The notes beneath the pieces were generated by a model that was not told the origin of the DNA, searched no databases, and saw only the letters and a program-made list of their open reading frames with translations. Below are positions 13,842 through 64,000 of a DNA stretch of 64,000 bases, piece after piece. The number at the start of each line of letters is the position of its first letter. Within the stretch, counting starts at the first letter, position 1. Origin of the DNA: Chiloscyllium plagiosum (Eukaryota); the NCBI RefSeq assembly GCF_004010195.1, contig NC_057751.1:13151659-13215658 (forward strand), written 5' to 3'. Position numbers and translations under genes: made by a program.

Positions 13842-14018
13842 AGCAAAGTACTGGAAATCTGAAATAAACAGATGGATAAATTCGAGTTCAGGCAACATCT
13901 GTGGAGAACTAAACAGTTGACATAGCTGGGTCTTGAAGCTAAACTGAAAACATGATGCATCTCGGTCTCCTGAGATGCAGTCAAAACTAGGTTCCTCCAG
14001 CACGTTGTGTTTGTGTCT
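13842..14018. mobile_element. Highly degenerate palindromic PLE-derived repeat
   Basis: ggcaacatctgtggaga ... agatgcag...ctccagcac; resembles 42171-42400. Confidence 0.4.
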
Positions 14019-17359: not shown

Positions 17360-17530
17360 CAAGGAAGAAAGAACACAGCAAGTCAAGTAGTACAATGTGG
17401 AGAAGTCGACACTGAAGAACAGTTACACCCGAAACATTGACTTCACCTCCCAATCCTCCATAACTTGCTGTGTTCTTCCAGCCTCATGCTAGACTACCTT
17501 GCATTCCTGCATCTGTCGTTTCTGTCTCTG
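17360..17530. mobile_element. Degenerate palindromic PLE-derived element with hammerhead-like core on + strand (17412-17438)
   Basis: CTGAAGA-acagttacaccc-GAAAC-ATT; same family as 61891-62010. Confidence 0.6.
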
Positions 17531-24410: not shown

Positions 24411-24504
24411 CTGTAGACTTCTTCAACCAAATCAACATGCTGTATGGAACAATAACAGAGTTTTGTACAGAACAAAGCTGTCCTGTGATGTCAGCAGGAC
24501 CAAG
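24411..24504 (+). CDS. MOB1A: MOB1A exon 3
   Basis: [36 protein letters not shown]. Confidence 0.96.
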
Positions 24505-27699: not shown

Positions 27700-27947
27700 T
27701 CGGGCGACTCTCTGTGTGGAGTTTGCAGATTCTGCCCGTGTCTGCATGGGTTTCCTCCGGTGCTCCGGTTTCCTCCCACAATCCAAAAATGTGCAGGGTC
27801 GGTGAATTGGCCACGCTAAATTGCCCGTAGTGTTAGGTTAAGGTGTAAATGTAGGGAATGTATCTGGGTGGGTTGTGCTTCGGCGGGTCGGTGTGGACTT
27901 GTTGGGCCGAAGGGCCTGTTTCCACACTGTAAGTAATCTAATCTAAT
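27700..27947 (+). mobile_element. 5'-truncated HE1-type SINE nested in CR1
   Basis: Matches 62101-62350 reverse complement; (TAATC)n tail. Confidence 0.9.
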
Positions 27948-28343
27948 ACTGCTTGAGGTAACTTTCCTGAATGCAGTTAACAAATTCCACGCCATCTAAG
28001 CCCTGAATGCTCTGGCAGTCCCAGTCTATGTTAGAAAAATTAAAATTCCTTATTACAAACACCCTATTGCTCCTGCAAGTCTCCCCAGTCTCCCTACATA
28101 TTTGTTCCTCTAATACCCCTTGCCTATTTGGAAGTCGATAGTACAACCCCATTAAGGTCACCATCGCTGCCTGATTCCTAAGCTGCACCTGTAAAATCAC
28201 ACTGGATGAACCTTCAGTTATTTCACCTCTTCCTACTGCTGTGATACTTCCCTTCATAAAAAAAAATGCAACTCTCCCCTCCCCTCTTTCCACTGCCTCT
28301 GTCCCGCTTAAAGCACCTGTACCCTGGCACATTAAGCTGCCGG

Positions 28344-28556
28344 GAGAAAGTGAGGACTGCAGATGCTGGAGATCAGAGCTGAAAATGTGTTGCTGGAAAA
28401 GCACAGCAGGTCTGGCAGCATCCAAGGAGCAGGAGAATCGACATTTTGGACATGAGCCCTTCAGGTTCCTGAAGAAGGGCTCATGCCCGAAACGTCGATT
28501 CTCCTGCTCCTTGGATGCTGCCTGACCTGCTGCGCTTTTCCAGCAACACATTTTCA
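28344..28556. mobile_element. ORF-less palindromic Neptune-type PLE insertion with hammerhead motif
   Basis: ~88-bp inverted arms 28378-28465 and 28466-28558; 17-bp TSD GCACATTAAGCTGCCGG at 28327-28343 and 28557-28573. Confidence 0.88.
28469..28496 (+). ncRNA. Minimal hammerhead ribozyme motif (intact core)
   Basis: CUGAAGA-A-GGGC-ucau-GCCC-GAAAC-GUC. Confidence 0.75.
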
Positions 28557-30909
28557 GCACATTAAGCTGCCGGTCAGGACTCTCCCTTAGCCATCTTGCG
28601 TAATGGCTATAATATCCCAGACCCACATACCTATCCATACCCCGAATTCTTCAGCATTACCTTTTAGTCCCCTTGCATTGAAATAAATGCAATTTAATCC
28701 AAAAGGCATTCTACGCTCCCTGTCGTGTTCTAGCTGACCTGTCTCTTCAACTTAGTATTTCTGATTACTGTATATCCCGTGAACCTCCTTGCTGTTGAGG
28801 AAACCAATCCCAGCTGCCCATCAAGATTAAACCCTCTCTTGCAACACTAGCAAACCTGGCCGCCACGGTATTGATTCCCCCTCCAGCTCAGGTGCAACAC
28901 CTTCCTCTTGAACAGGTCACCTCCGCTCCAGAAAAGATCCCAGTGATACAAAAATCTGAATCCCTACCCCCTGAACCAATTTTTTAGCCACACATTCATT
29001 TGCCATATCCTCCTGTTCTTACCCTCACTAGCTTGTGGCACAGGAAGTCATCCAGAAATTATCACCAACAAAGTCTTGGTTTTTAACTTGCTCTCGATAA
29101 TCACTGTGCAGGACCTCATCCCTATTTCTACCTCTCTCAGTTGTGCCAACGTGCACAATGACTTCTGGCTACTCTCCCTCTCCCTTGAAAACATTCTGCA
29201 GCCTCTCTTGAGACATCCTGGACCCTGACACCTGGGAGGCAATACACCATTCTGGATTCTGGTTTATGGCCACAGAATCAATCTCCTACTTGTACCCCTA
29301 AACATCGAGTCTCCGATCAGTAAGGTCTGGTTTACCTTTATCCTTTCTCGTTGTGCCCCAGAGCCAGACGTGGTGCCATTAATGTGGCTGCTGCTGCTTT
29401 CTCCGAACGGTCATTTTCCCTCCCCTTGTTTTCAAGGGAAATGGCCACAGGGATTCCTGCACTCTGTCTACTCCCTTTGCTTTTCCTGGTGGTCACCAAC
29501 TCTGACTGCACCTTAGGTGTGACCACCTCACTAAAACTCTTACCTATGAAATGCTCAGTATCTCATGATCCTGAGTACATCCAGATCCAGCTCCCTAACA
29601 CGGTCTCCCAGGAGCTGCAGCTGGGTGCACTTCCCACAGATGTTGTCATCAGGGATAATGGAAGTCTCCCTGTGCTTCAACATCCTGCAGCAGCAACACG
29701 TGCATATCTCCTCTCCAGGCCGGCAATGATTCAGGGTTTATTTTTCAGTTTACTAAACTTTCCTCTGTAAATCAGTTTCCCATCTTAATGCCCAGACAGG
29801 CATCCCTGCAGCCATAGCCAGGCACCCATTGGTGATCACCATGAGGTACTGTGGAACCCTGCAAATCTGAATGGTGTTTGTTTCCCTTTCACCTTGTTCT
29901 GAATAGTCTCTCCCTCCCAGTCCAACTCTAAATGGTCTTCCACTATCACAGTCTTGGAAGAAACCGTTGTTTTTGTTTTATTTCAGACATGAAGTCTACC
30001 ATTTAGAATTTCTATTTATTTCCTTGGCCTTTTTCTGCCATTCTGATTGCATTGACTCTTGTGGAATAAAGTTCTATTTCTCAGAAACTGGTTGGGATAT
30101 CTGGTGGCAAGGACGGGTTGGACCGAAGTCTCTGTTTCTGTGCTGTACATCTCTATGACTCTGTGACTGGCCTAACTGCCGTCTCACCTGCTGTAAAACT
30201 GAAAAGGACAATTTAAAGGACTTTACCTGGACTTTTTGCTGAGCCACTGCTCTCCAAAGCCCTACTTCTGAGTCTGCCACAACAAATTTAGCAATAGCAC
30301 TTTTCGCTACCACTCAATGTTTTGTTTTAGTTAGAGGAGGAGGAAAGTTGGGTGGCTGGTGAGGTCCTCCTTCAGGTAGTGGTGACTGCGCAGATGCAAA
30401 TCTTCACACTGACAGCCAATCTGCTTTGTCACAGTCATCTGCTAGTCCAAAAGTATGGCTTCAATTTTGAGATCATGTTGTACACAAGTCCTGTACTTCC
30501 TGATGAGTGGTAATAGTTTGTCCACACATATTCTCTTCTTTGTTGTCCTTCATATATATCAACTTTGATCAATTCATCCTGTCAGCCTTCTAAACTCCAG
30601 GGAATACAATTCCATTTTCTAATGTCTGCTTGTAATTTCACCCTTGGCATTCTTGGAAACATATGCCATAATCTCCAACTCGAGAACATCTTTCACAGAA
30701 TATAATGTCCAGAACTGATAACAGTGCTTGGTTCTCTGTCTTCTTCACCCAAGATAGTTTTCACGAGTGAAAGACCTACAATACTTGTATTTCATGGGTG
30801 CAATGACTTCAACATTTCAGATCTAGAACATACCCCCTCAAATGGTTGGTTGTTCTACTGATAATCTGGAGAAGTAGAACTGTTCAAATATGGTTTTCTT
30901 CCAGCAGTA

Positions 30910-32360: not shown

Positions 32361-33553
32361 GCAGGATTAAAGTCTTTCGGTGATCTCTTGGAACTCATTA
32401 GGCTCTGGATCACATTATGGAAAATGTGGTGGGCAGGTGTTAGGTGATTGGGAATGCAACAAGCCAAAGGACATATTTCTGGATTTTAATGTTGCACAGA
32501 GCCTGAGATGCAACTTAGAAGTATGCATTCAGAAAGCAAATTTTTACTGCAATTTATTTCATGAGGCATTTCTGGAATGTGAGACATGACTGAGATCTGT
32601 CCACAAACATAAGTTACACAAATAGCCCCATGGCGTTTGAATGATCTAACGTTATTAGAAAGTGCAGTTTTTTCATGTATGTGGAATACATGTTAACACT
32701 TGTCGTTTACATTTTGATAATGCTCCAGTAAAAGAGTTCATAATTGTACAGACTATTTTTCTTTCATTTGGTAAATGCAATGTGTAATCATAAAGAAGCT
32801 AAAAGCATTTTTGGGTATTTTAATTATGATCACATTAGTTTCACACTTCATTGTATCTTGACTTACTCTTTTCTCTTTCACCTCTGCCTCTTTTCCTCAG
32901 GTAGTTTGATTCTATCGACTGGGATATAACTGTTGTAGTCCATTGATTTACTTGATAGCTCTTTCTTATATTCTACGCTTAACACGTGTTCCTAGATGTT
33001 GAAATTTGTAGTAGAATACATTCCACTTCAACAAGTAACCATGTTGGATGTCAGAGGTTGGTTTAAAATGAAAACCAAATGAATGTGATGTACATTCACC
33101 TCAAAAAAAATTAAAACTTCCTTAAGCTCACAGAAGGTTGAAGTGATTTCAGTTCATACATTTTCTGTTCACATTTTTAATTATTCTCAATTAGAGTTCC
33201 TTTTTCTTCTTGCTTTGATTCCAGAACTTGTTTCTCTGAGTTAATTTCTTCCTTAAATAACACACGTCTACATTATAGAACAAAGTTGGGAGTAAATATC
33301 TGGTAAACAGGGAGTAATGGAAAAGAGTTGAATATTTCTCAGTAGTACACGATAGTCCAGTTGATCATCTGATTTGTCTTGTGCTGTTTGATTCTTTTCC
33401 AACCTTTTCTTACAGTCACAATTGTTAAATGCTTTGGCAAATTATAACTGTTGTGCAATGTTTCAAGTATCGATTAAATAGATGTAAATGGAAGATGTGT
33501 GGACTGTTTGATTTTTTTGCCATCTTTATTACCACTGAGGATATTTGTTACAG

Positions 33554-33687
33554 ATATGAATACCATTGGGCTGATGGCACAAATATTAAAAAACCAATTA
33601 AGTGTTCTGCTCCAAAATACATTGATTACCTGATGACATGGGTACAGGACCAGCTTGATGATGAGACCCTCTTTCCTTCTAAAATAG
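33554..33687 (+). CDS. MOB1A: MOB1A exon 4
   Basis: YEYHWADGTNIKKPIKCSAPKYIDYLMTWVQDQLDDETLFPSKI; AG/GT. Confidence 0.96.
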
Positions 33688-34064: not shown

Positions 34065-37000
34065 CCGGGAGAAGGGAAGGGGACAGAATAGAAAAGTACT
34101 CGTGGTAGGGGACTCGATAGTTAGGGGAATCGACAGGAGATTTTGTGGTCAGGATCAGGATTCCCGGAAGGTATGTTGCCTCCCTGGTGCCTGGGTCCGG
34201 GACGTCTCCGATCGGGTGTATAAGGTTCTAAAAGGGGAGGGCGAACAGCCAGAAATCGTGTTACATATTGGCACTAATGATATAGCCAGGAAAAGGATTG
34301 AGGATATAAAAAGTGATTTCAGGGAGTTAGGATGGAAGCCGCAAAGCAGGACGAACAGAGTAGGGTTGTCTAGTTTACTACTGGTGCCACGAGATAGCGA
34401 GGTGAGGAACAGGGAGAGGGCGCAACTTAACACGTGGCTGCGCAGCTGGTATAGGAGGGAGGGCTTCAGATATGTAGATAATTGGGATGCCTTCTGGGGA
34501 AGGTGGGACCTGTACAAGAAGGACGGGTTGCATCTGAACTGGAAGGGGACCAATGTCCTGGGTGGAAGGTTTGCTCGAGTAGTTCGAGAGGGTTTAAACT
34601 AGTATGGCAGAGGGATGGGAACCTGAGCTGTATACCGTAGGTGAGAGTTAATGCAGATGAGGCAATAGCAAGAGGTAGACCAGCTAGTGGGAAGGATTTT
34701 CTTAGGAAGGAACCAAAGGATCAGTTAAAGTGTGTTTGCATTAACGCAAGGAGTATCAGGAATAAAAGTGATGAACTTAGAGCATAGTACCTGGTGCTAT
34801 GATGTTGTGGCCATAACAGAGACATGGGTTTATCAGGGGCAGGAATGGTTGCTAGATGTTCCAGGGTTTAGAGCATTTAAAAAGAATGGGGAGGGGGGAA
34901 AAAGAGGAGGGGGTGTAACACTACTAATCAGAGAGGGTATCACAGCTACAGAAGCTTCCATTGTCGAGGAAGATCTGCCTACCGAGTCAGTATGGGTGGA
35001 AATTAGGAACAGCAAGGGAGCAGCCACCTCTTAAGGGTTTACTACAGGCCCCCCAATAGCAACAGGGAGATTGAAGAAAGCATAGGTCAGCAGATTTTGG
35101 AAAAGTGTGGAGGTAGTAGGGTTGTTGTAATGGGTGACTTTAACTTTCCCAATATTGATTGGAACCTCCTTTGGGCAGAAGATTTGAATGGAGCTGTTTT
35201 TGTAAGGTGTCTTCAGGAGGGCTTCTTAACTCAGTACGTTGACAGGCCAACGAGGGGAGAGGCCATTCTAGACTTGGTGCTCGGAAACGAGCCGGGGCAG
35301 GTATCAGATCTTGTGGCGGGAGAGCATTTTGGTGATAGTGACCACAACTGCCTCACATTCTACATAGCTATGGAGAAGGAGAGGATTAAGCAAAATGGGA
35401 GGATGTTTAATTGGGGAAGAGGAAACTATGATGCGATTAGACATGTGTTAGGAAGCATGGACTGGGAGCAATTGTTCCATGGTAAAGGCACTATAGACAT
35501 GTGGAGACTGTTTAAGGAACAGTTGTTGTGAGTGATGAATAAATGTCCCTCTGAGACCGGCAAGAAAGGGTAAGATAGAGGAACCTTGGATGACGGGAGC
35601 GTTGGAGCGTCTCGTCAAAAGGAAGAAGATAGCTTACATAAGGTGGAGGAAGCTAGGGTCAAGCTCCGCTCTAGAGGATTACAGGCAGGCGAGGAAGGAG
35701 CTCAAAAATGGTCTGAGGAGAGCCAGGAGGGGNNNNNNNNNNNNNNNNNNNNNNNNNNNNNNNNNNNNNNNNNNNNNNNNNNNNNNNNNNNNNNNNNNNN
35801 NNNNNNNNNNNNNNNNNNNNNNNNNNNNNNNNNNNNNNNNNNNNNNNNNNNNNNNNNNNNNNNNNNNNNNNNNNNNNNNNNNNNNNNNNNNNNNNNNNNN
35901 NNNNNNNNNNNNNNNNNNNNNNNNNNNNNNNNNNNNNNNNNNNNNNNNNNNNNNNNNNNNNNNNNNNNNNNNNNNNNNNNNNNNNNNNNNNNNNNNNNNN
36001 NNNNNNNNNNNNNNNNNNNNNNNNNNNNNNNNNNNNNNNNNNNNNNNNNNNNNNNNNNNNNNNNNNNNNNNNNNNNNNNNNNNNNNNNNNNNNNNNNNNN
36101 NNNNNNNNNNNNNNNNNNNNNNNNNNNNNNNNNNNNNNNNNNNNNNNNNNNNNNNNNNNNNNNNNNNNNNNNNNNNNNNNNNNNNNNNNNNNNNNNNNNN
36201 NNNNNNNNNNNNNNNNNNNNNNNNNNNNNNNNNNNNNNNNNNNNNNNNNNNNNNNNNNNNNNNNNNNNNNNNNNNNNNNNNNNNNNNNNNNNNNNNNNNN
36301 NNNNNNNNNNNNNNNNNNNNNNNNNNNNNNNNNNNNNNNNNNNNNNNNNNNNNNNNNNNNNNNNNNNNNNNNNNNNNNNNNNNNNNNNNNNNNNNNNNNN
36401 NNNNNNNNNNNNNNNNNNNNNNNNNNNNNNNNNNNNNNNNNNNNNNNNNNNNNNNNNNNNNNNNNNNNNNNNNNNNNNNNNNNNNNNNNNNNNNNNNAAG
36501 CCCTAAATGTGTTTTTTGCTTCTGTCTTTATGAAAGAAACTAACTTTGTAGTTAATGAAACCTTTGAAGAGCAGGTGTGCATGCTGGAATGGATAGAGAT
36601 AGAGGAAGCTGATGTGCTGAAAATTTTGTCAAACATTAATATTGACAAGTCGCCAGGCCCGGACCAGATTTATCCTCGGCTGCTTTGGGAAACGAGAAAT
36701 GCGATTGCTTAGACACTTGCGAAGATCTTTGCATCCTCGCTCTCCACTGGAGTCATACCTGAGGACTGGAGAGAGGCAAATGTAATTCCTCCCTTCAAGA
36801 AAGGAAATAGGGAAATCCCCGGCAATTACAGACCAGTAAGTCTCACGTCTGTCGTCTGCAAGGTGTTAGAAAGGATTCTGAGGGATAGGATTTATGACCA
36901 TCTGGAAGAGCATGGCTTGATTAAATGCAGTCAAAATGGCTTTGTAAGGGATAGATCATGCCTCACAAACCTTACCGAGTTCTTTGAGGATGTGACTAGA

Positions 37001-37917: not shown

Positions 37918-38092
37918 ATGGTCTTGTTCCATTCTTCTCCCTGGTCACCCACGAACTGCAGTTTTTGTTCAAGTTGTGATGTCTCTTCAAGTTGATTTTT
38001 AGCATTAACTATTAAAATGTACAGTTGATTTTATAAATCTGAATCTTTGAAGCTTTTCCATGTTATAATTCATGATAACTGTTACATTGCAG

Positions 38093-38256
38093 GAGTGCCC
38101 TTCCCTAAAAATTTCATGTCTGTGGCCAAGACCATTCTTAAGCGTCTCTTCAGAGTTTATGCTCATATTTATCACCAGCATTTCGACTCTGTGATGCAGC
38201 TTCAGGAAGAGGCCCATCTTAATACTTCCTTCAAGCACTTCATATTTTTTGTTCAG
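38093..38256 (+). CDS. MOB1A: MOB1A exon 5
   Basis: GVPFPKNFMSVAKTILKRLFRVYAHIYHQHFDSVMQLQEEAHLNTSFKHFIFFVQ; AG/GT. Confidence 0.96.
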
Positions 38257-41900: not shown

Positions 41901-42720
41901 TCTTCAATCACATGTTTATCTGATGTATCCTGCTATTTTGACTTTGACTAACACATGACACTGGTGGTAATCCTGAGATCACTACCTTGGAGATTCTTTT
42001 TCCTGATTTACTTCCTTACTCCCATTTTTCTGCTCTTGGGGCGTATGTGTTTTTTTTTCTTTTGTAACTGATATGATATATACCAAGACCACTGTTTACT
42101 CTGCCCCTCCAGAATGTTCTGCAGCTGCTCTGAGACACCTTTGACACCAGCATCAGGGAGGCAACATACCATGAACAAAAACAGAAATTGGTGGAAAACT
42201 CAGCAGGTCTGGCAGCATCTGTGGGGAGAAAACAGAATTAACATTTCGGGTCCAATGATCCTCCTTCGGTTCAGTTGTGGAGGGTCACTCGATGTGAAAC
42301 ATTACCTCTGCTTTCTCTCCACAGATGCTGCCAGACCTGCTGAATTTTTGCAGTAATTTCTGTTTTTGTTTGACTTCCAGCATCTGCATTTTTTGTGGTT
42401 GTTTAGTGAGCCAATATACTGGACAAGAGTCTTATTTGCAGGCAAAGAAATCTCTGTCTATTCTTTTTACAATTGAATCCCATGGAAGTATTGCATTCAC
42501 ACATTTGTTGTTTGTCCTATATGCAGCAGAGTCAACCATGTTGCATTGATTTTGAATGTTGCTCCATTCCTCTGAAAGGCCACTCCTGTCAACAGTATCC
42601 AAAGTGGTATATCTGTTTTGTAGGGGAACAGCCAAGACATTCGTGCACGACCTGCCTGGTTCTGTTGCTCAACCTAGTGGTTACCCATTTCCTTCCTGCC
42701 TGTGGAGTCTGAGCCTGTGA
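38905..42720 (-). mobile_element. Old degenerate CR1 LINE(s), mosaic
   Basis: Minus remnants LVRPHLEYC, APE (SLWIELRN), second RT piece ~41250-41700, ORF1 (VPLQNRYTTL, DSIVKRIDR). Confidence 0.75.
42171..42400. mobile_element. Older palindromic PLE-derived element with decayed hammerhead cores
   Basis: Arms AACAAAAACAGAAATTG...CAGCAGGTCTGGCAGCATCTGTGG and CCACAGATGCTGCCAGACCTGCTG...TTTCTGTTTTTGTT; tail TCCAGCATCTGCA on right arm only. Confidence 0.75.
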
Positions 42721-50106: not shown

Positions 50107-50322
50107 AAATATATTGATGCTAATTTCTTTGCATCGTTCCACATTGTTTTGTGACTGCTAATTCAATCCCGAATCATTATTTCAAGAAGTTTCTTTCCAC
50201 CAAACATGAGCTGACAACCCCAGCAATTAGGCCTATCTTCATACCCTAGTTCCAAAAATATTGGAAAGTTTTCAACTGTGCAATTCAAATCTCTATTCTT
50301 GCACGAGTCTATACCTGACATG

Positions 50323-50911
50323 AGCTGAAAATGTGTTGCTGGAAAAGCGCAGCAGGTCAGGCAGCATCCAGGGGACAGGAGAATCGACGTTTCGGGCATA
50401 AGCCCTTCTTCAGGCATGAGGAAAGTGTGTCCAGCAGGCTAAGATAAAAAGGTAGGGAGGAGGGACTTGGGGGAGGGGCATCGGAAATGCGATAGGTGGC
50501 AAGAGGTCAAGGTGAGGGTGATAGGTCAGACTGGGGTGGGGGCGGAGAGGTCAGGAAGAAGATTGACCTGCATATCCTTGGTGGAGTGGGAGGGGGAGTT
50601 GAAGTGTTGAGCCACAGGGTGGTTGGGTTGGTTGGTTGGTCCGGGTGTCCCAGAGGTGTTCTCTGAAATGCTCCACAAGTAGGCGGCCTGTCTCCCCAAT
50701 ATAGAGGAGGACACAGCGGGTGCAGAGGATACAATAGATGATGTGTGTGGAGGTGCAGATGAATCTGTGGCAGATATGGAAGTTTCCTGAAGAAGGGCAT
50801 GTGCCCGAAACGTCGAATCTTCTGTTCCCTGGACGCTACCTGACCTGCTGCGCTTTTCCAGCAACACATTTTCAGCTCTGATCTCCAGCATCTGCAGACC
50901 TCACTTTCTCC
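50323..50911. mobile_element. Neptune-type PLE, inverted arrangement, GIY-YIG remnant and two hammerhead motifs (50386-50413 minus, 50787-50814 plus)
   Basis: Minus translation CTSTHIIYCILCTRC..LYIGETGR..EHFREH...VAQHFN; 15-bp TSD TCTATACCTGACATG at 50308-50322 and 50912-50926. Confidence 0.9.
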
Positions 50912-50954
50912 TCTATACCTGACATGTTTGACGTTGAGGCTAGTGTATTTTTTT

Positions 50955-51215
50955 GGTTAGAGTAATAGATGTACAGCATGGAAATAGACCCTTCGATCCA
51001 ACTCGTCCAGGCCAACCAGATATCCCAACCCAATTTAGTCCCACCTGCCAGCACCTGGCCCATATTCTTCCATACCCTTCCTATTCATGTACCAATCCAG
51101 ACTTTTCTAAATGTTGTAATTGTACGAGCCTCTACCACTTCCTCTGGCAGCTCATTCCATACCCGTACCATCCTCTGCATGAAAAAGTTGCCTTGTAGGT
51201 CTCTTTTATATAGGT
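50955..51215 (-). mobile_element. CR1 3' end fragment
   Basis: FFMQRMVRVWNELPEEVVEA motif plus tail. Confidence 0.85.
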
Positions 51216-54100: not shown

Positions 54101-54147
54101 TGAAATTACTATTATTCTTTGGAAAGTTGGTTTCAAAAGTAGTGGGC

Positions 54148-54930
54148 TGAAAAATGTGTTGCTGGAAAAGTGCAGTAGGTCAGGTAGCATCCAAGGAGCA
54201 GGAGAATCGACGTTTCGGGCATAAGCCCTTCTTCAGGAATGAGGAGGGTGTGCCAAGCAGGCTAAGATAAAAGGTAGGGAGGAGGGAGGGGCATTGGGAA
54301 TGTGATAGGTGGAAGGAGGTTAAGGTGAGGGTGATAGGCCGGAGAGGGGGTGGGGGCGGAGGGATCGGGAAGAAGATTGCAGGTCAAGAAGGCGGTGCTG
54401 ACTCCGAGGGTTGGGACAGAGATAAGGTGGGGGGAGGGGAAATGAGGAAGCTGGAGAAATCTGCATTCATCCGTTGTGGTTGGAGGGTGCAGCGGATGCA
54501 GTAAATGATGTGTGTGGAGGTGCAGGTGATTTTGTGACGGATATGGAAGGATCCCTTGGGGAGGGGGGACATGTGGGTGCAGGTTTTGCATTTCTTGTGG
54601 TTGCAGGGGAAGGTGCCGAGAGTGGAAGTTGGGTTGGTGGGGGGTGCGGACCTGACGAGGGAGTTGCGGAGGGAGTGGTCTTTCCGGAACGCTGATAGGG
54701 GAGGGGAAGGAAATATATCCTTGGTGGTGGGGTCTGTTTGGAGGTGGCGGAAATGACGAAGGATGATACGATGTATGTGGAAGTTGATGGGGTGGTAGGT
54801 GAGGACCAGTGGGTTTCTGTCCTGGTGGCGATTGGAGGGACGGGGTTCAAGGGCGGAGGAGCGGGAAGTGGAGGAGATGCGGTAGAGAGCATCGTCAACT
54901 ACGTCTGAGGGGAAATTGCGGTCTTTGAAG
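54148..54930 (-). mobile_element. Neptune-type PLE 3' fragment with intact hammerhead motif (54209-54236)
   Basis: Minus translation ...PLVLTYHP...AFRKDHSLRNSLVRS...GTFPCNHKKCKTC...CTSTHIIYCIRC (Cys-rich linker then GIY-YIG start); 11-bp TSD AAGTAGTGGGC at 54137-54147 and 54931-54941. Confidence 0.88.
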
Positions 54931-55194
54931 AAGTAGTGGGCCTTGGTTTGTGATACTTTTGTTCTGTGAAGGTGGCTTTTCTTCCAAATGATTCAATCCA
55001 CTTTCTTTGCAGTTGGTTAAAACAGCACTTCCAAAAATAAAACAGACTTTTTTTTTCATCCAGAATTGCTCTTACACACAGCTGTACATTTTTTTCCATC
55101 ACAGTCCTCTTTTTTTCATCTACCAGCCACCATCAACAAGTCACCAGTGTTATCCCATTGATTAATTTACATATGCAGTTGGTTCAAGGCAATG

Positions 55195-56399: not shown

Positions 56400-59300
56400 G
56401 CTTCTTCCACCCCTCAAAATCAAATTCAGAGCCTGGAGCATTAGAACCCTCTTGGATAAACTCAACAGCAACAGACCTAAACAGCCATACTGTTACTGTT
56501 GCCCAGGAGCTCAGATCTTTTGAATTTGACTTTGGCATTGCCACCCTAATGAGATCTGATAGTTAGGGGAAGGAACAAGGTGTGGTTACACCTTTTAGAA
56601 AGGTTAATTAGAAGAACACTGCCACCTGTCGTGGTTGTGGGTATGTTTGCTGAGCTGGGATGTTGATTTGCAGAGTTTCATCCCCTGTCTCGGTGACATC
56701 TTCAGTGCTTTGGAGCCTCCTGTGAAGCACTGTTCAACCGTGTCATCTGGAATTTACTTAATTCCATTTCCCGCTGCTTCCGATTGCCAGTTCTGCTTTT
56801 TCATTGTTGTGGCCAGTATATTGGGTCTCGGTCAATGTGCTTGTTGATGGCTAAGTGTCATTCTTCTAAAACTTCTCTGGCTGTCCTATGTTAAGCTTGT
56901 CATGGGATCGTTGTGTTGTCCCAGTTGAATTTGTGGTCCTTGACATCTGTGTGTGTGGCTACTAGGGACAGCTGGTCCCTAGAGAAGCTGCATTAGGACC
57001 CTGTTCAAAAGGTTACAACACTGTAACACTCCTGACCTACGAAGGAAAGAAGAATACCCCGACAGCGTATTCGCCAAGAACAGATATCCCCACAACTTCA
57101 TCCACACATGCCTAACAGACAAACAACATGATGACGACATGTCCTGACCTAACACACTAGCCACACTACCTTACATTAAAAAAGGTCTCTGAATTGACAG
57201 CTGGACTTCTCCAATCACTCAAAATCATGATAACCCATAAACCGACAACCACGTTCAGACAACGACTCAACAGGCCAAAAGACCCTATACCCATCATGTG
57301 CAAGACTAAAGTAATTTACAAGATTCCACGCAAAGACTGCATGAAACACTATGTAGGACGAACGAGCAGACAACTAGCAATCCGCATCCATGAACACCAA
57401 CTAGCCACAAAATGCCGAGACCAGCTGTCCCTGTTAGCCATACACGTAGAGAACAAGGATCACAGGTTCGACTGGGACAACACAGCAATCATAGGACAAG
57501 CTAAATGTAGGAAAGCCAGGGAATTTCTAGAAGCATGGCACTCAGCCACAGACTTCATCAATAAGCATATTGACCTAGACTCAATATACCGGACACAACA
57601 ATGGATAACCGGAAGCAGCAGAAATGGAACCAAATAAATTCCAGATGACACAGTACAGCAGTGCTTCACAGGAGGTTCCAAAGCAGTGAAGATGTCACCA
57701 AGACGGGGGACAAAACGTCTGCAAATCAACTTCCAGCTCTGCGAGCATACCCACAACCATTACAACATGCATCTGAGCTACAAATCTTTACACAAACTTT
57801 GAACACTGCGGCCAATTGGTGGGTTTTGCCATTAAAAACCACCTGGCTATCTTAAAGTTAGATCCCTCGGGGGACAAACAAACCCATGATGACCCTTCAG
57901 CTCATCCTTGCCAAGGACCACTGTTACAGTCCTCAGCACCTAAATGCCAACTCTGGTTGCAACAAATGCATTCAAAGAAAATGTTTGCACCAACTTTGAA
58001 TTGTTTCTGGTCAGAGTTTGAATGGGTGACAAACTGATCAGCATGGTGACATCAGTTCATAGTTGGGAAAGATACAGGCTTTGCGGAAATATAATTGGCA
58101 GAAAGGAGGTAGGGAAATCCACCAGCAGTAATATTGTGCTCTTAACAAAATATCCAGAACATAGTTTTACTATAACCAGCGAGTTGTTCCATCTGAGACA
58201 TAAACCTCATGGTAACACTTGCTTCAAGCAGCTGCTCGAAAACCAACACCTGTATGTAACACATGTGCTATAAGGGGAGTTGATGACCGTTGTCCAATTC
58301 GCTGTGTCCTCAACATCAGTATTGCTGCAAAGTTGCAACAATGATGCAGGAAAATTTACACTGAGACACACAAAGACCCTGATTATAGGTGCTTATCAAG
58401 GAGAAGTAGTCACTGTCTACATGCAGGAAAGAACAATTTTAAGATTTCTCTCTCTACTAGAGGCTCTGTCTTCAATTGGAGTGTGCTTAAATCGATCTTG
58501 CACTCTATTAACTGCCGCCATTTAAGCAGATCTCCAACCGAGCAAGATGTCTGAAAAGGTCATTCAACAGCTAAGGCTCAAGAACTAATAGAATCCAGGC
58601 CGAAGTACAAAAAATATGGTGTAATACCATGGGTAAACTACATGGTATAATTTCCGTTATTTGGAAGGAGGAGAGCATGCCAAGAAATACCATCTGTAAT
58701 TGTGATCATCAACAAGAATAATAAGTTCCCGACTCTGTAACTGCAGAGAAATTTCCTTGCTCTCAACTACAGATTGGCTAAAGAATCTTCAATTGTCTTC
58801 TCCCTGCGGCTGAAAGGCATCTTCCAGATTCCCAAGGTGCATTCTGTACTCAGAGGCACAATAGACACAACCTTTACCGTGCTGCAACTGCAAAAGCAAT
58901 GCAGGAAACAGCACCAATGCTTATTTATAGCTTTCTTTGACCTCATTAAGACCTTTGATAATCATGAGTGATTATAGAGCTTCCTCCTCTGCTTCAGCTG
59001 CCCCCAGAGACCATCCTCCGCCTGCATAGTGTTATGCAAGCTGTGATCCGAAGCAACAGATCCGCTACACCCTCAATTCACCAGGGTCAAGCAAATCTGT
59101 GTCATAACACTGATACATTTCTCAATCGTCCTTGTTCCAATGCTCCACCCTCATCCTCTTTAACTCCACAGTAGTGGAGAGCTTGATCAACAGAACAAAC
59201 AGGAACTGTTCAATCTTTCTCATCTTAATGCCAGATCCAGGGTTGTCTCATCCTCTGTCACTGAAGTACAGAACGCAGATGATGCTTGCACCTGCATGCA

Positions 59301-63290: not shown

Positions 63291-63604
63291 TTCTTTAACC
63301 AGATGGAAACCAAAGGGTCTGGCTGTTTTGTGTTAAATTCTCTTCATGTTTGTCATGGCCTAATTCACATAGAATAAAGAATGGCTGCTTTATGATCTTT
63401 GGGTTGCCCATTTGTTCAAATCTCATGTTACATTTAATTGTCCCATGGCAATTGAGGCCAAACATGTAGAAATTTGGCTTTTGAATGCACTTTGAAGTCA
63501 TGCGTATATGAGTGATGGTGATGCCCTCAGATACACGTGTCACTTGATATGTAATGAACTGTACACTTTATCATCATTGGCAATCATTCACCAATGAATA
63601 CGTT

Positions 63605-63826
63605 GAGATTAGAGTGGTGCTGGAAAAGCACAGCAGGTCAGGCAGCATCCGAGGAGCAGGAAAATTGACATTTTGGGCAGGAGCCCTTCATCAGCCCTCC
63701 TGATGAAGGGCTCCTGCCCAAAACGTCGATTTTCCTGCTTCTCGGGTGCTGCCTGACCTCCTGTGCTTTTCCAGCACCACACTAATCTTGACTCCTAATT
63801 TCCAGCATCTGCAGTCCTCACTTTCG
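63605..63826. mobile_element. ORF-less palindromic Neptune-type PLE insertion, CUGAUGA subfamily
   Basis: ~90-bp inverted arms centred ~63697; tail on right arm; degenerate TSD CCAATGAATACGTTG / CCAAATGAGTACAGTTG. Confidence 0.82.
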
Positions 63827-64000
63827 CCAAATGAGTACAGTTGTCCACATCGGAAATTCTGTGTTACTATTCATGGGTTCTGTGGTTCCTCGCATGGCTG
63901 ATCAGCCCAATCCGAGAGCAGTATCTCTGACAATACATTTGGTGGGTGTTTCCAGGAGGTGAAAGTGGTCCTTCATTATGCATGACAGATATTTATAATC

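Follow-up and report, generated by a model that had tools for sequence, protein, structure and literature searches.

A 213-base insertion without an ORF, lying in an intron of a MOB1-type gene of the shark Chiloscyllium plagiosum, consists of two inverted copies of the terminal repeat (pLTR) of a Penelope-like element (PLE) that meet head to head at the front edge of a minimal hammerhead motif. We consider it, with a probability of about 0.68, to be the most reduced version of an ordinary inverted insertion left by an EN+ PLE, putatively of the Neptune type, in which two cDNAs were joined head to head. The traits of EN+ PLEs that it displays are a link to an RT and GIY-YIG ORF, seen through two longer copies of the family at 50.3k and 54.1k, a tail at one end only, a TSD of variable length and the minimal hammerhead. 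Positions refer to the window, that is, the whole stretch of 64,000 nucleotides that was analysed (Table 1).

The insert (28344-28556) is bracketed by exact direct repeats of 17 bp, as the sequence-only reading had stated, and just four pairs of exact 17-mer repeats spaced within 1.2 kb exist in the whole window. Its arms are 94% complementary (28378-28462 against 28474-28558). A stretch of 34 nt, the tail, prolongs the - arm alone and makes the insert asymmetric: the left terminus is this unpaired tail, and the two ends do not form an inverted-repeat pair. The earlier description as a palindrome of about 210 bp with arms made only of the PLE terminal repeat was therefore right as to size, inverted arrangement and pLTR origin of the arms, and wrong as to symmetry, since the - arm has the tail in addition.

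Table 1. Features of the insertion, its host sequence and related copies in the window.
Feature	Position	Strand	Remarks
Left TSD, 17 bp	28327..28343	.	identical to 28557-28573
PLE tail, 34 nt, on one arm	28344..28377	-	matches tails at 50878-50911 and ~63795-63829
Tail-bearing pLTR arm from the hammerhead 5' edge; core disrupted by a 3-nt deletion and the change at G12	28378..28464	-	
Head-to-head junction of both 5' ends, without filler or clear microhomology	28465..28468	.	sequence
Tail-less pLTR arm, final 2 nt common with the TSD; sense to MOB1A pre-mRNA	28466..28558	+	
Minimal type I hammerhead motif, predicted site after C28496	28469..28496	+	motif descriptor (PMC4209133)
Right TSD	28557..28573	.	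exact copy of the left repeat
Host LINE endonuclease remnant, interrupted by the insert	27946..28700	-	frame reopens; weak Pfam match
Long form, same family	50308..50926	+	15-bp TSD; insert 50323-50911
Single-orientation 5'-truncated copy, same family	54137..54941	-	tail-less, 11-bp TSD; insert 54148-54930
Second minimal palindrome, other subfamily	63593..63838	+	tail; ~9-bp TSD with 1 mismatch
Older minimal palindrome, third subfamily	42172..42396	+	degenerate cores, no clear TSD

The insert lies between MOB1-type exons at about 24413-24503 and 33553-33686, and the one exon compared with MOB1A (38092-38253) is identical to it; the gene had thus been correctly named, while its placement in intron 3 presumes that the coding sequence begins with a short exon. 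On the minus strand, excision of the insert together with one TSD copy reopens an endonuclease-like frame, which confirms the proposed insertion into an endonuclease region; the Pfam match of this LINE remnant, to Exo_endo_phos_2, is weak (E 0.052), and we take the remnant to be CR1-like. An assembly gap of 765 N (about 35737-36500) falls within LINE remnant sequence. Nothing suggests a function of the insert for MOB1A.

A search of the window with a profile of the arms gave 18 matches, against none when the window was reversed. At 50.3k and 54.1k the pLTR stands directly behind remnants of an RT/GIY-YIG ORF, and this is the sequence link to PLE ORFs whose absence, according to the sequence-only reading, would have counted against it. 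In the 54.1k copy, which holds the end of the ORF, the ORF remnant is 56-66% identical to shark RT and GIY-YIG proteins (five matches among 471 candidates), these homologues coming from carpet sharks and a ray. The Neptune clade is marked by a Zn-finger-like linker between RT and EN; a CxxxxCxxC linker is present both in the window's ORF remnant and in its best match, the homologue P0001. A protein search for a full-length shark element gave 95 relatives of 28-56% identity, none of them named as shark. The annotated shark protein P0003 appears to run through the end of a PLE ORF into the pLTR and hammerhead, which is probably an annotation artefact.

The 50.3k copy has an inverted arm without a tail, about 460 nt long, that extends into the end of the ORF, and a short, tail-bearing + arm that begins at the hammerhead edge. 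Of the sister copies that had been proposed, those at 63605 and 42171 are true fold-backs, with identities of 93% and 77%. The one at 17360 is weak: its score, the best of 31 centres tried, was reached by 0.8% of random centres, and the profile matches its + arm alone; the degenerate left arm (17360-17411) seems to start near the hammerhead cut site and not at the front edge. The copy proposed at 13842 cannot be told from background, since 69% of random centres score as high; the profile matches its - arm alone (E 5e-5), and it has a 12-bp flanking repeat with one mismatch. A second PLE family has inverted pLTRs at about 1000-1984 (13-bp TSD) and 56623-57800 (9-bp TSD). These copies (987-1997 and 56614-57809 with their TSDs) are Poseidon-like, with a tail on one arm and a minimal hammerhead of their own. 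Over the two unrelated families the TSDs of the window's copies measure 17, 15, 13, 11, 9 and 9 bp, and in copies of both the tail is confined to one arm. The ORF link, the one-arm tail, the TSDs of 9-17 bp and the variable junctions described below bear out the earlier suggestion of a recurrent minimal PLE product.

The hammerhead core of the + arm, sense to the MOB1A pre-mRNA, is intact as claimed, with CUGAAGA at 28469-75, stem II at 28477-80/28485-88 and GAAA at 28489-92; a palindromic ACGU (28492-95) replaces helix III, as in the dimer type, the predicted site follows C28496, and helix I has only about two firm pairs. The - arm core has the 3-nt deletion noted before and, additionally, a change of G12 to A. 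Matches to the hammerhead motif number 12 against 1.44 expected. An Rfam scan at gathering thresholds gave no hammerhead match, so that the ribozyme call is based on the motif together with PMC4209133 and PMC11167929. The insert RNA is predicted to form one hairpin (fold z = -18.8) in which GAAA and the cleavage triplet would be paired, in line with the masking of the ribozyme that had been suggested; the predicted cofold of two copies did not form the dimeric hammerhead. Predicted folds of single arms were no better than those of shuffles. In such folds (28344-28464, 50781-50912, 63696-63829) the tail pairs with the most conserved block of the pLTR, a candidate recognition stem whose predicted energies are no better than those of shuffles. 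Cutting of the MOB1A pre-mRNA by the + arm ribozyme would be unlikely, because the site is paired in the predicted hairpin, a partner on the same strand is needed and single hammerhead motifs did not cleave (PMC4209133). Hammerhead cleavage was also considered as the source of the 5' boundary of the arms and was rejected, since the core, which precedes the cut site, is still present in the minimal arms.

Among the published features of PLEs are an inverted, 5'-truncated copy and, at one end, a tail of 30-40 bp (PMC8557442, PMC3846280), and the origin of these inverted structures has been described as unresolved (PMC8557442). The PAc protein in vitro cleaves and extends both DNA strands and begins reverse transcription at two internal sites, one at either end of the tail; its main substrate is unprocessed, uncleaved RNA, truncation of the RNA at the 5' end shortens the product, and the minimal RNA needs to reach +172, about 55 nt past the tail end (PMC11167929). 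Counted on the RNA printed in that paper, PAc positions +111-118 lie 117-124 nt from CUGA; the distance from CUGA to the tail end is 124-130 nt in the shark and 115-121 nt in the largest non-shark family. We propose that the PLE protein would nick both target strands, 17 bp apart; one of the nicks would prime reverse transcription from the end of the tail, the second from a site 34 nt before it. The template would be uncleaved pLTR RNA, for which the 5' pLTR of the autonomous transcript is the simplest source. The cDNAs would run about 90 and 124 nt to the 5' end of this RNA, 1-4 nt ahead of CUGA, and would then be joined head to head, the mirror arm being made anew at each insertion. The 50.3k copy, which joins a point within the ORF to the hammerhead edge, requires two cDNAs. 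Just upstream of CUGA, TCA(T/G)T(C/T) occurs in four of the five shark arms that keep upstream sequence, and the fifth has TCATGC; judging by the initiator consensus, we take this hexamer to be initiator-like. These hexamers, together with the internal promoter of Penelope (PMC2377424), suggest that the RNA 5' end ahead of the hammerhead is probably a Pol II transcription start. The product is probably a dead end, an inactive by-product: if about 55 nt beyond the tail are needed, such stumps could not be recopied.

The same design recurs outside sharks. A search pattern of two head-to-head hammerhead cores separated by a spacer of at most 30 nt, which favours junctions close to the hammerhead, matched at least 111 metagenome loci and one locus of a viral collection; the shark-type pattern had no matches in the metagenome contigs or the viral contigs. 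True fold-backs of at least 45 nt make up 47 of the 112 listed loci (with a median arm of 82 nt among the 44 that had room) and fall, among the matches listed, into 14 sequence groups unrelated to that of the shark. A tblastn search with 60 of 100 retrieved PLE proteins gave no match to the 112 listed loci. The largest group comprised 26 members, or 23 once three divergent ones were left out; in 22 of these one arm reaches 115-121 nt from CUGA and the other stops at 65-97, the 23rd being cut by the contig end. Two loci with flanks shared with others were then removed, leaving 21 elements for the analysis of the arms. TSDs of 8-13 bp were found in six of the 21, against 0 of 420 mismatched controls.

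Tailed and tail-less arms of these 21 elements have the same consensus, and the arms of one element come from one template: the derived non-CpG variants that they have in common number 36, where 11.9 would be expected and 5000 permutations gave 25 at most (p=2e-4), and arm identity averages 0.81 inside an element as compared with 0.78-0.79 across elements. Gene conversion between arms or subfamily structure could alternatively account for the shared variants. Spacers are distinct in 45 of the 47 fold-backs, and the junctions of the largest family all differ. The 5' boundary is clustered, with 19 of 57 arms extending to -11 from CUGA, a G at -12 in 10 of those 19, and nothing shared beyond -12/-13. 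Together, variable junctions, a single arm consensus and variants shared by an element's own arms point towards a mirror arm that is rebuilt at every insertion. At loci L006, L063, L070, L029, L060 and L102 the centre forms a short palindrome, perfect or nearly so, and two subfamilies have one spacer in common, which suggests microhomology or fold-back at those sites.

Reads and contigs of four shark sequencing runs were aligned to 50416-50960, so that the results describe the family and not the 28.4k locus. Copies of the family abound in two organisms (63,684 contigs aligned in run X2, and 44,894), and the tail ends sharply at 50911-50913, followed by unrelated flanks (537 + 1,249 contigs in X2, agreement 0.34). 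Among the 15 joints listed of 61, which include the natural continuity from ORF to hammerhead, the inversion joints are single-copy and variable and no common hammerhead-to-hammerhead central joint appears; hairpins may assemble or sequence poorly, affecting such counts. Four single-contig inversion joints among those 15 have a tailed arm that starts at 50835-50852, past the hammerhead, and by these joints the 5' boundary at the hammerhead edge is not universal. The comparison of central junctions that the sequence-only reading had proposed thus gave variable junctions in the non-shark families and, for the shark, none in common among the 15 listed; it is not fully decisive, since a short master RNA copied twice also yields variable junctions.

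Joints that connect 50878/50880 to 50910/50912 and 50913 to 50878 represent tail-to-tail joints (up to eight contigs) and tandem duplications of the 36-nt tail unit, and both organisms have them. At 50910 in run X21, 184 RNA reads pass the tail end into one AT-rich sequence (agreement 0.85) that carries a polyadenylation-like signal; these reads point to one well-expressed locus whose end falls in or behind a pLTR tail. Read starts and ends did not pile up on 50416-50960 in one single-cell RNA run, a weak test of cleavage. A>G and T>C changes stood at 34 and 40 sites in the raw RNA run and at 24 and 17 in DNA contigs, a family-wide comparison with unmatched DNA. Other changes were raised too (G>A 51 against 30, T>G 8 against 3), so that these RNA differences are not separable from copy variation and give no evidence of A-to-I editing by ADAR, for which, as for Dicer, the hairpin had been suggested as a substrate.

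The variable junctions and homogenised arms fit equally well a SINE-like route, which we regard as unlikely though worth keeping in view. Short capped RNAs running from the hammerhead edge to the tail and some flank would serve in each event as the template for two rounds of copying by PLE protein acting in trans; their source would be solo pLTRs or the tailed arms of palindromes, and minimal elements would breed minimal elements without an ORF. The internal promoter of Penelope (PMC2377424) agrees with this, as does the finding that pLTRs suffice for mobilisation in trans (PMC3846280). Depth is much greater from the hammerhead to the tail than over the adjoining ORF end (RNA about 800-1300 against 110, and DNA contigs likewise), but these ratios mix subfamilies, and the roughly 2.7-fold strand bias of RNA reads across the tail may come from few loci, one of which gives the 184 reads above. 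Furthermore, the stump lacks the sequence of about 55 nt past the tail end that the minimal PAc RNA needs (PMC11167929), and the bases of the putative initiator are lost from most arms. In its general form, a doubtful one in our judgement, the idea would be that across unrelated animal lineages the hammerhead starts a short pLTR RNA, and that such RNAs are an unrecognised, PLE-dependent, non-autonomous class replicating arm by arm. A template of 120-130 nt would be copied twice per insertion, and the tailed arm could template the next round. If so, RNA 5' ends and priming on both strands in vivo could be read from the junctions.

Two joined cDNAs, our preferred reading, must also be weighed against synthesis by fold-back, in which the end of a single cDNA acts as its own primer and the inverted arm is a copy of that cDNA. 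Self-priming has been proposed for head-to-head junctions (PMC3846280), the centre is a short palindrome without mismatch in several non-shark elements, and three loci have one spacer in common. However, the 50.3k form, joining an ORF-internal point to the hammerhead edge, is impossible in this way, most centres have unequal arms or filler, and the 28.4k centre is without a paired primer; we therefore think fold-back improbable as the general route, while it may explain those centres that are perfect palindromes. Size, hairpin look and the high copy number (the X2 contigs) would suit a MITE, or a palindromic RNA element copied whole as a unit of 210 nt. The termini are not inverted repeats, however, the TSDs vary from 9 to 17 bp, the non-shark families have neither shared junctions nor an arm-specific consensus, own arms share variants, and the link to a PLE ORF is direct. 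The MITE-looking replicating class that had been put forward is thereby largely refuted as a whole-unit copier, and hardly any weight is left to it.

MITEs are short, ORF-less and hairpin-like, with terminal inverted repeats and a fixed TSD. The 28.4k insert has the first three traits in common with them and lacks the last two, and such hairpins should not be annotated as MITEs. Non-LTR retrozymes are non-autonomous, hammerhead-bearing elements with tandem motifs on the same strand; the insert has, in contrast, one motif per strand, facing apart, and no unit-length or circular RNA would be released from it. A literature search gave no described class of minimal hammerhead palindromes or account of their 5' boundary, and such elements may be catalogued in Repbase, Dfam or subscription journals; UCON13 is catalogued as a Penelope, with no mention of palindromes in the available part of PMC5753468. 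With the inverted-pLTR insertions of EN+ PLEs (PMC8557442, PMC3846280, PMC2377424) the insert shares head-to-head pLTRs, a tail at one end, a short variable TSD and a parent with RT and GIY-YIG. It differs from them in having no ORF between the repeats and in that both arms stop at the front edge of the hammerhead; its 17-bp TSD is longer than the 8-10 bp of published examples (PMC3846280). With the minimal hammerheads described for metazoan PLEs (Cervera and De la Pena 2014, PMC4209133) it shares the CUGANGA core, the extra base before stem II, the palindromic 15.2-16.2 and a short helix I. The dual motifs of Schistosoma described there lie on opposite strands 100-700 bp apart, whereas those at 28.4k abut, and sharks are not named in the available part of that paper. 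PAc, a Poseidon of Anolis (Frangieh et al. 2024, PMC11167929), has the same two tail-bounding starts of reverse transcription at a similar distance from CUGA, extends both strands and does not need hammerhead cleavage; it belongs to a clade other than Neptune, and the available text describes neither joined palindromes nor an arm that stops in front of the ribozyme at its 5' end. Both the components and their arrangement were already known; the present contribution is the evidence from outside sharks, where unrelated families repeat the design, its geometry and the arm-wise rebuilding. Minimal palindromes are compact and abundant records of how PLE inversions form, whose ends match the two start sites of reverse transcription found in vitro and whose centre marks where the template stops, so that genome sequence alone is enough to test for priming on both strands and to test where the PLE RNA has its 5' end.
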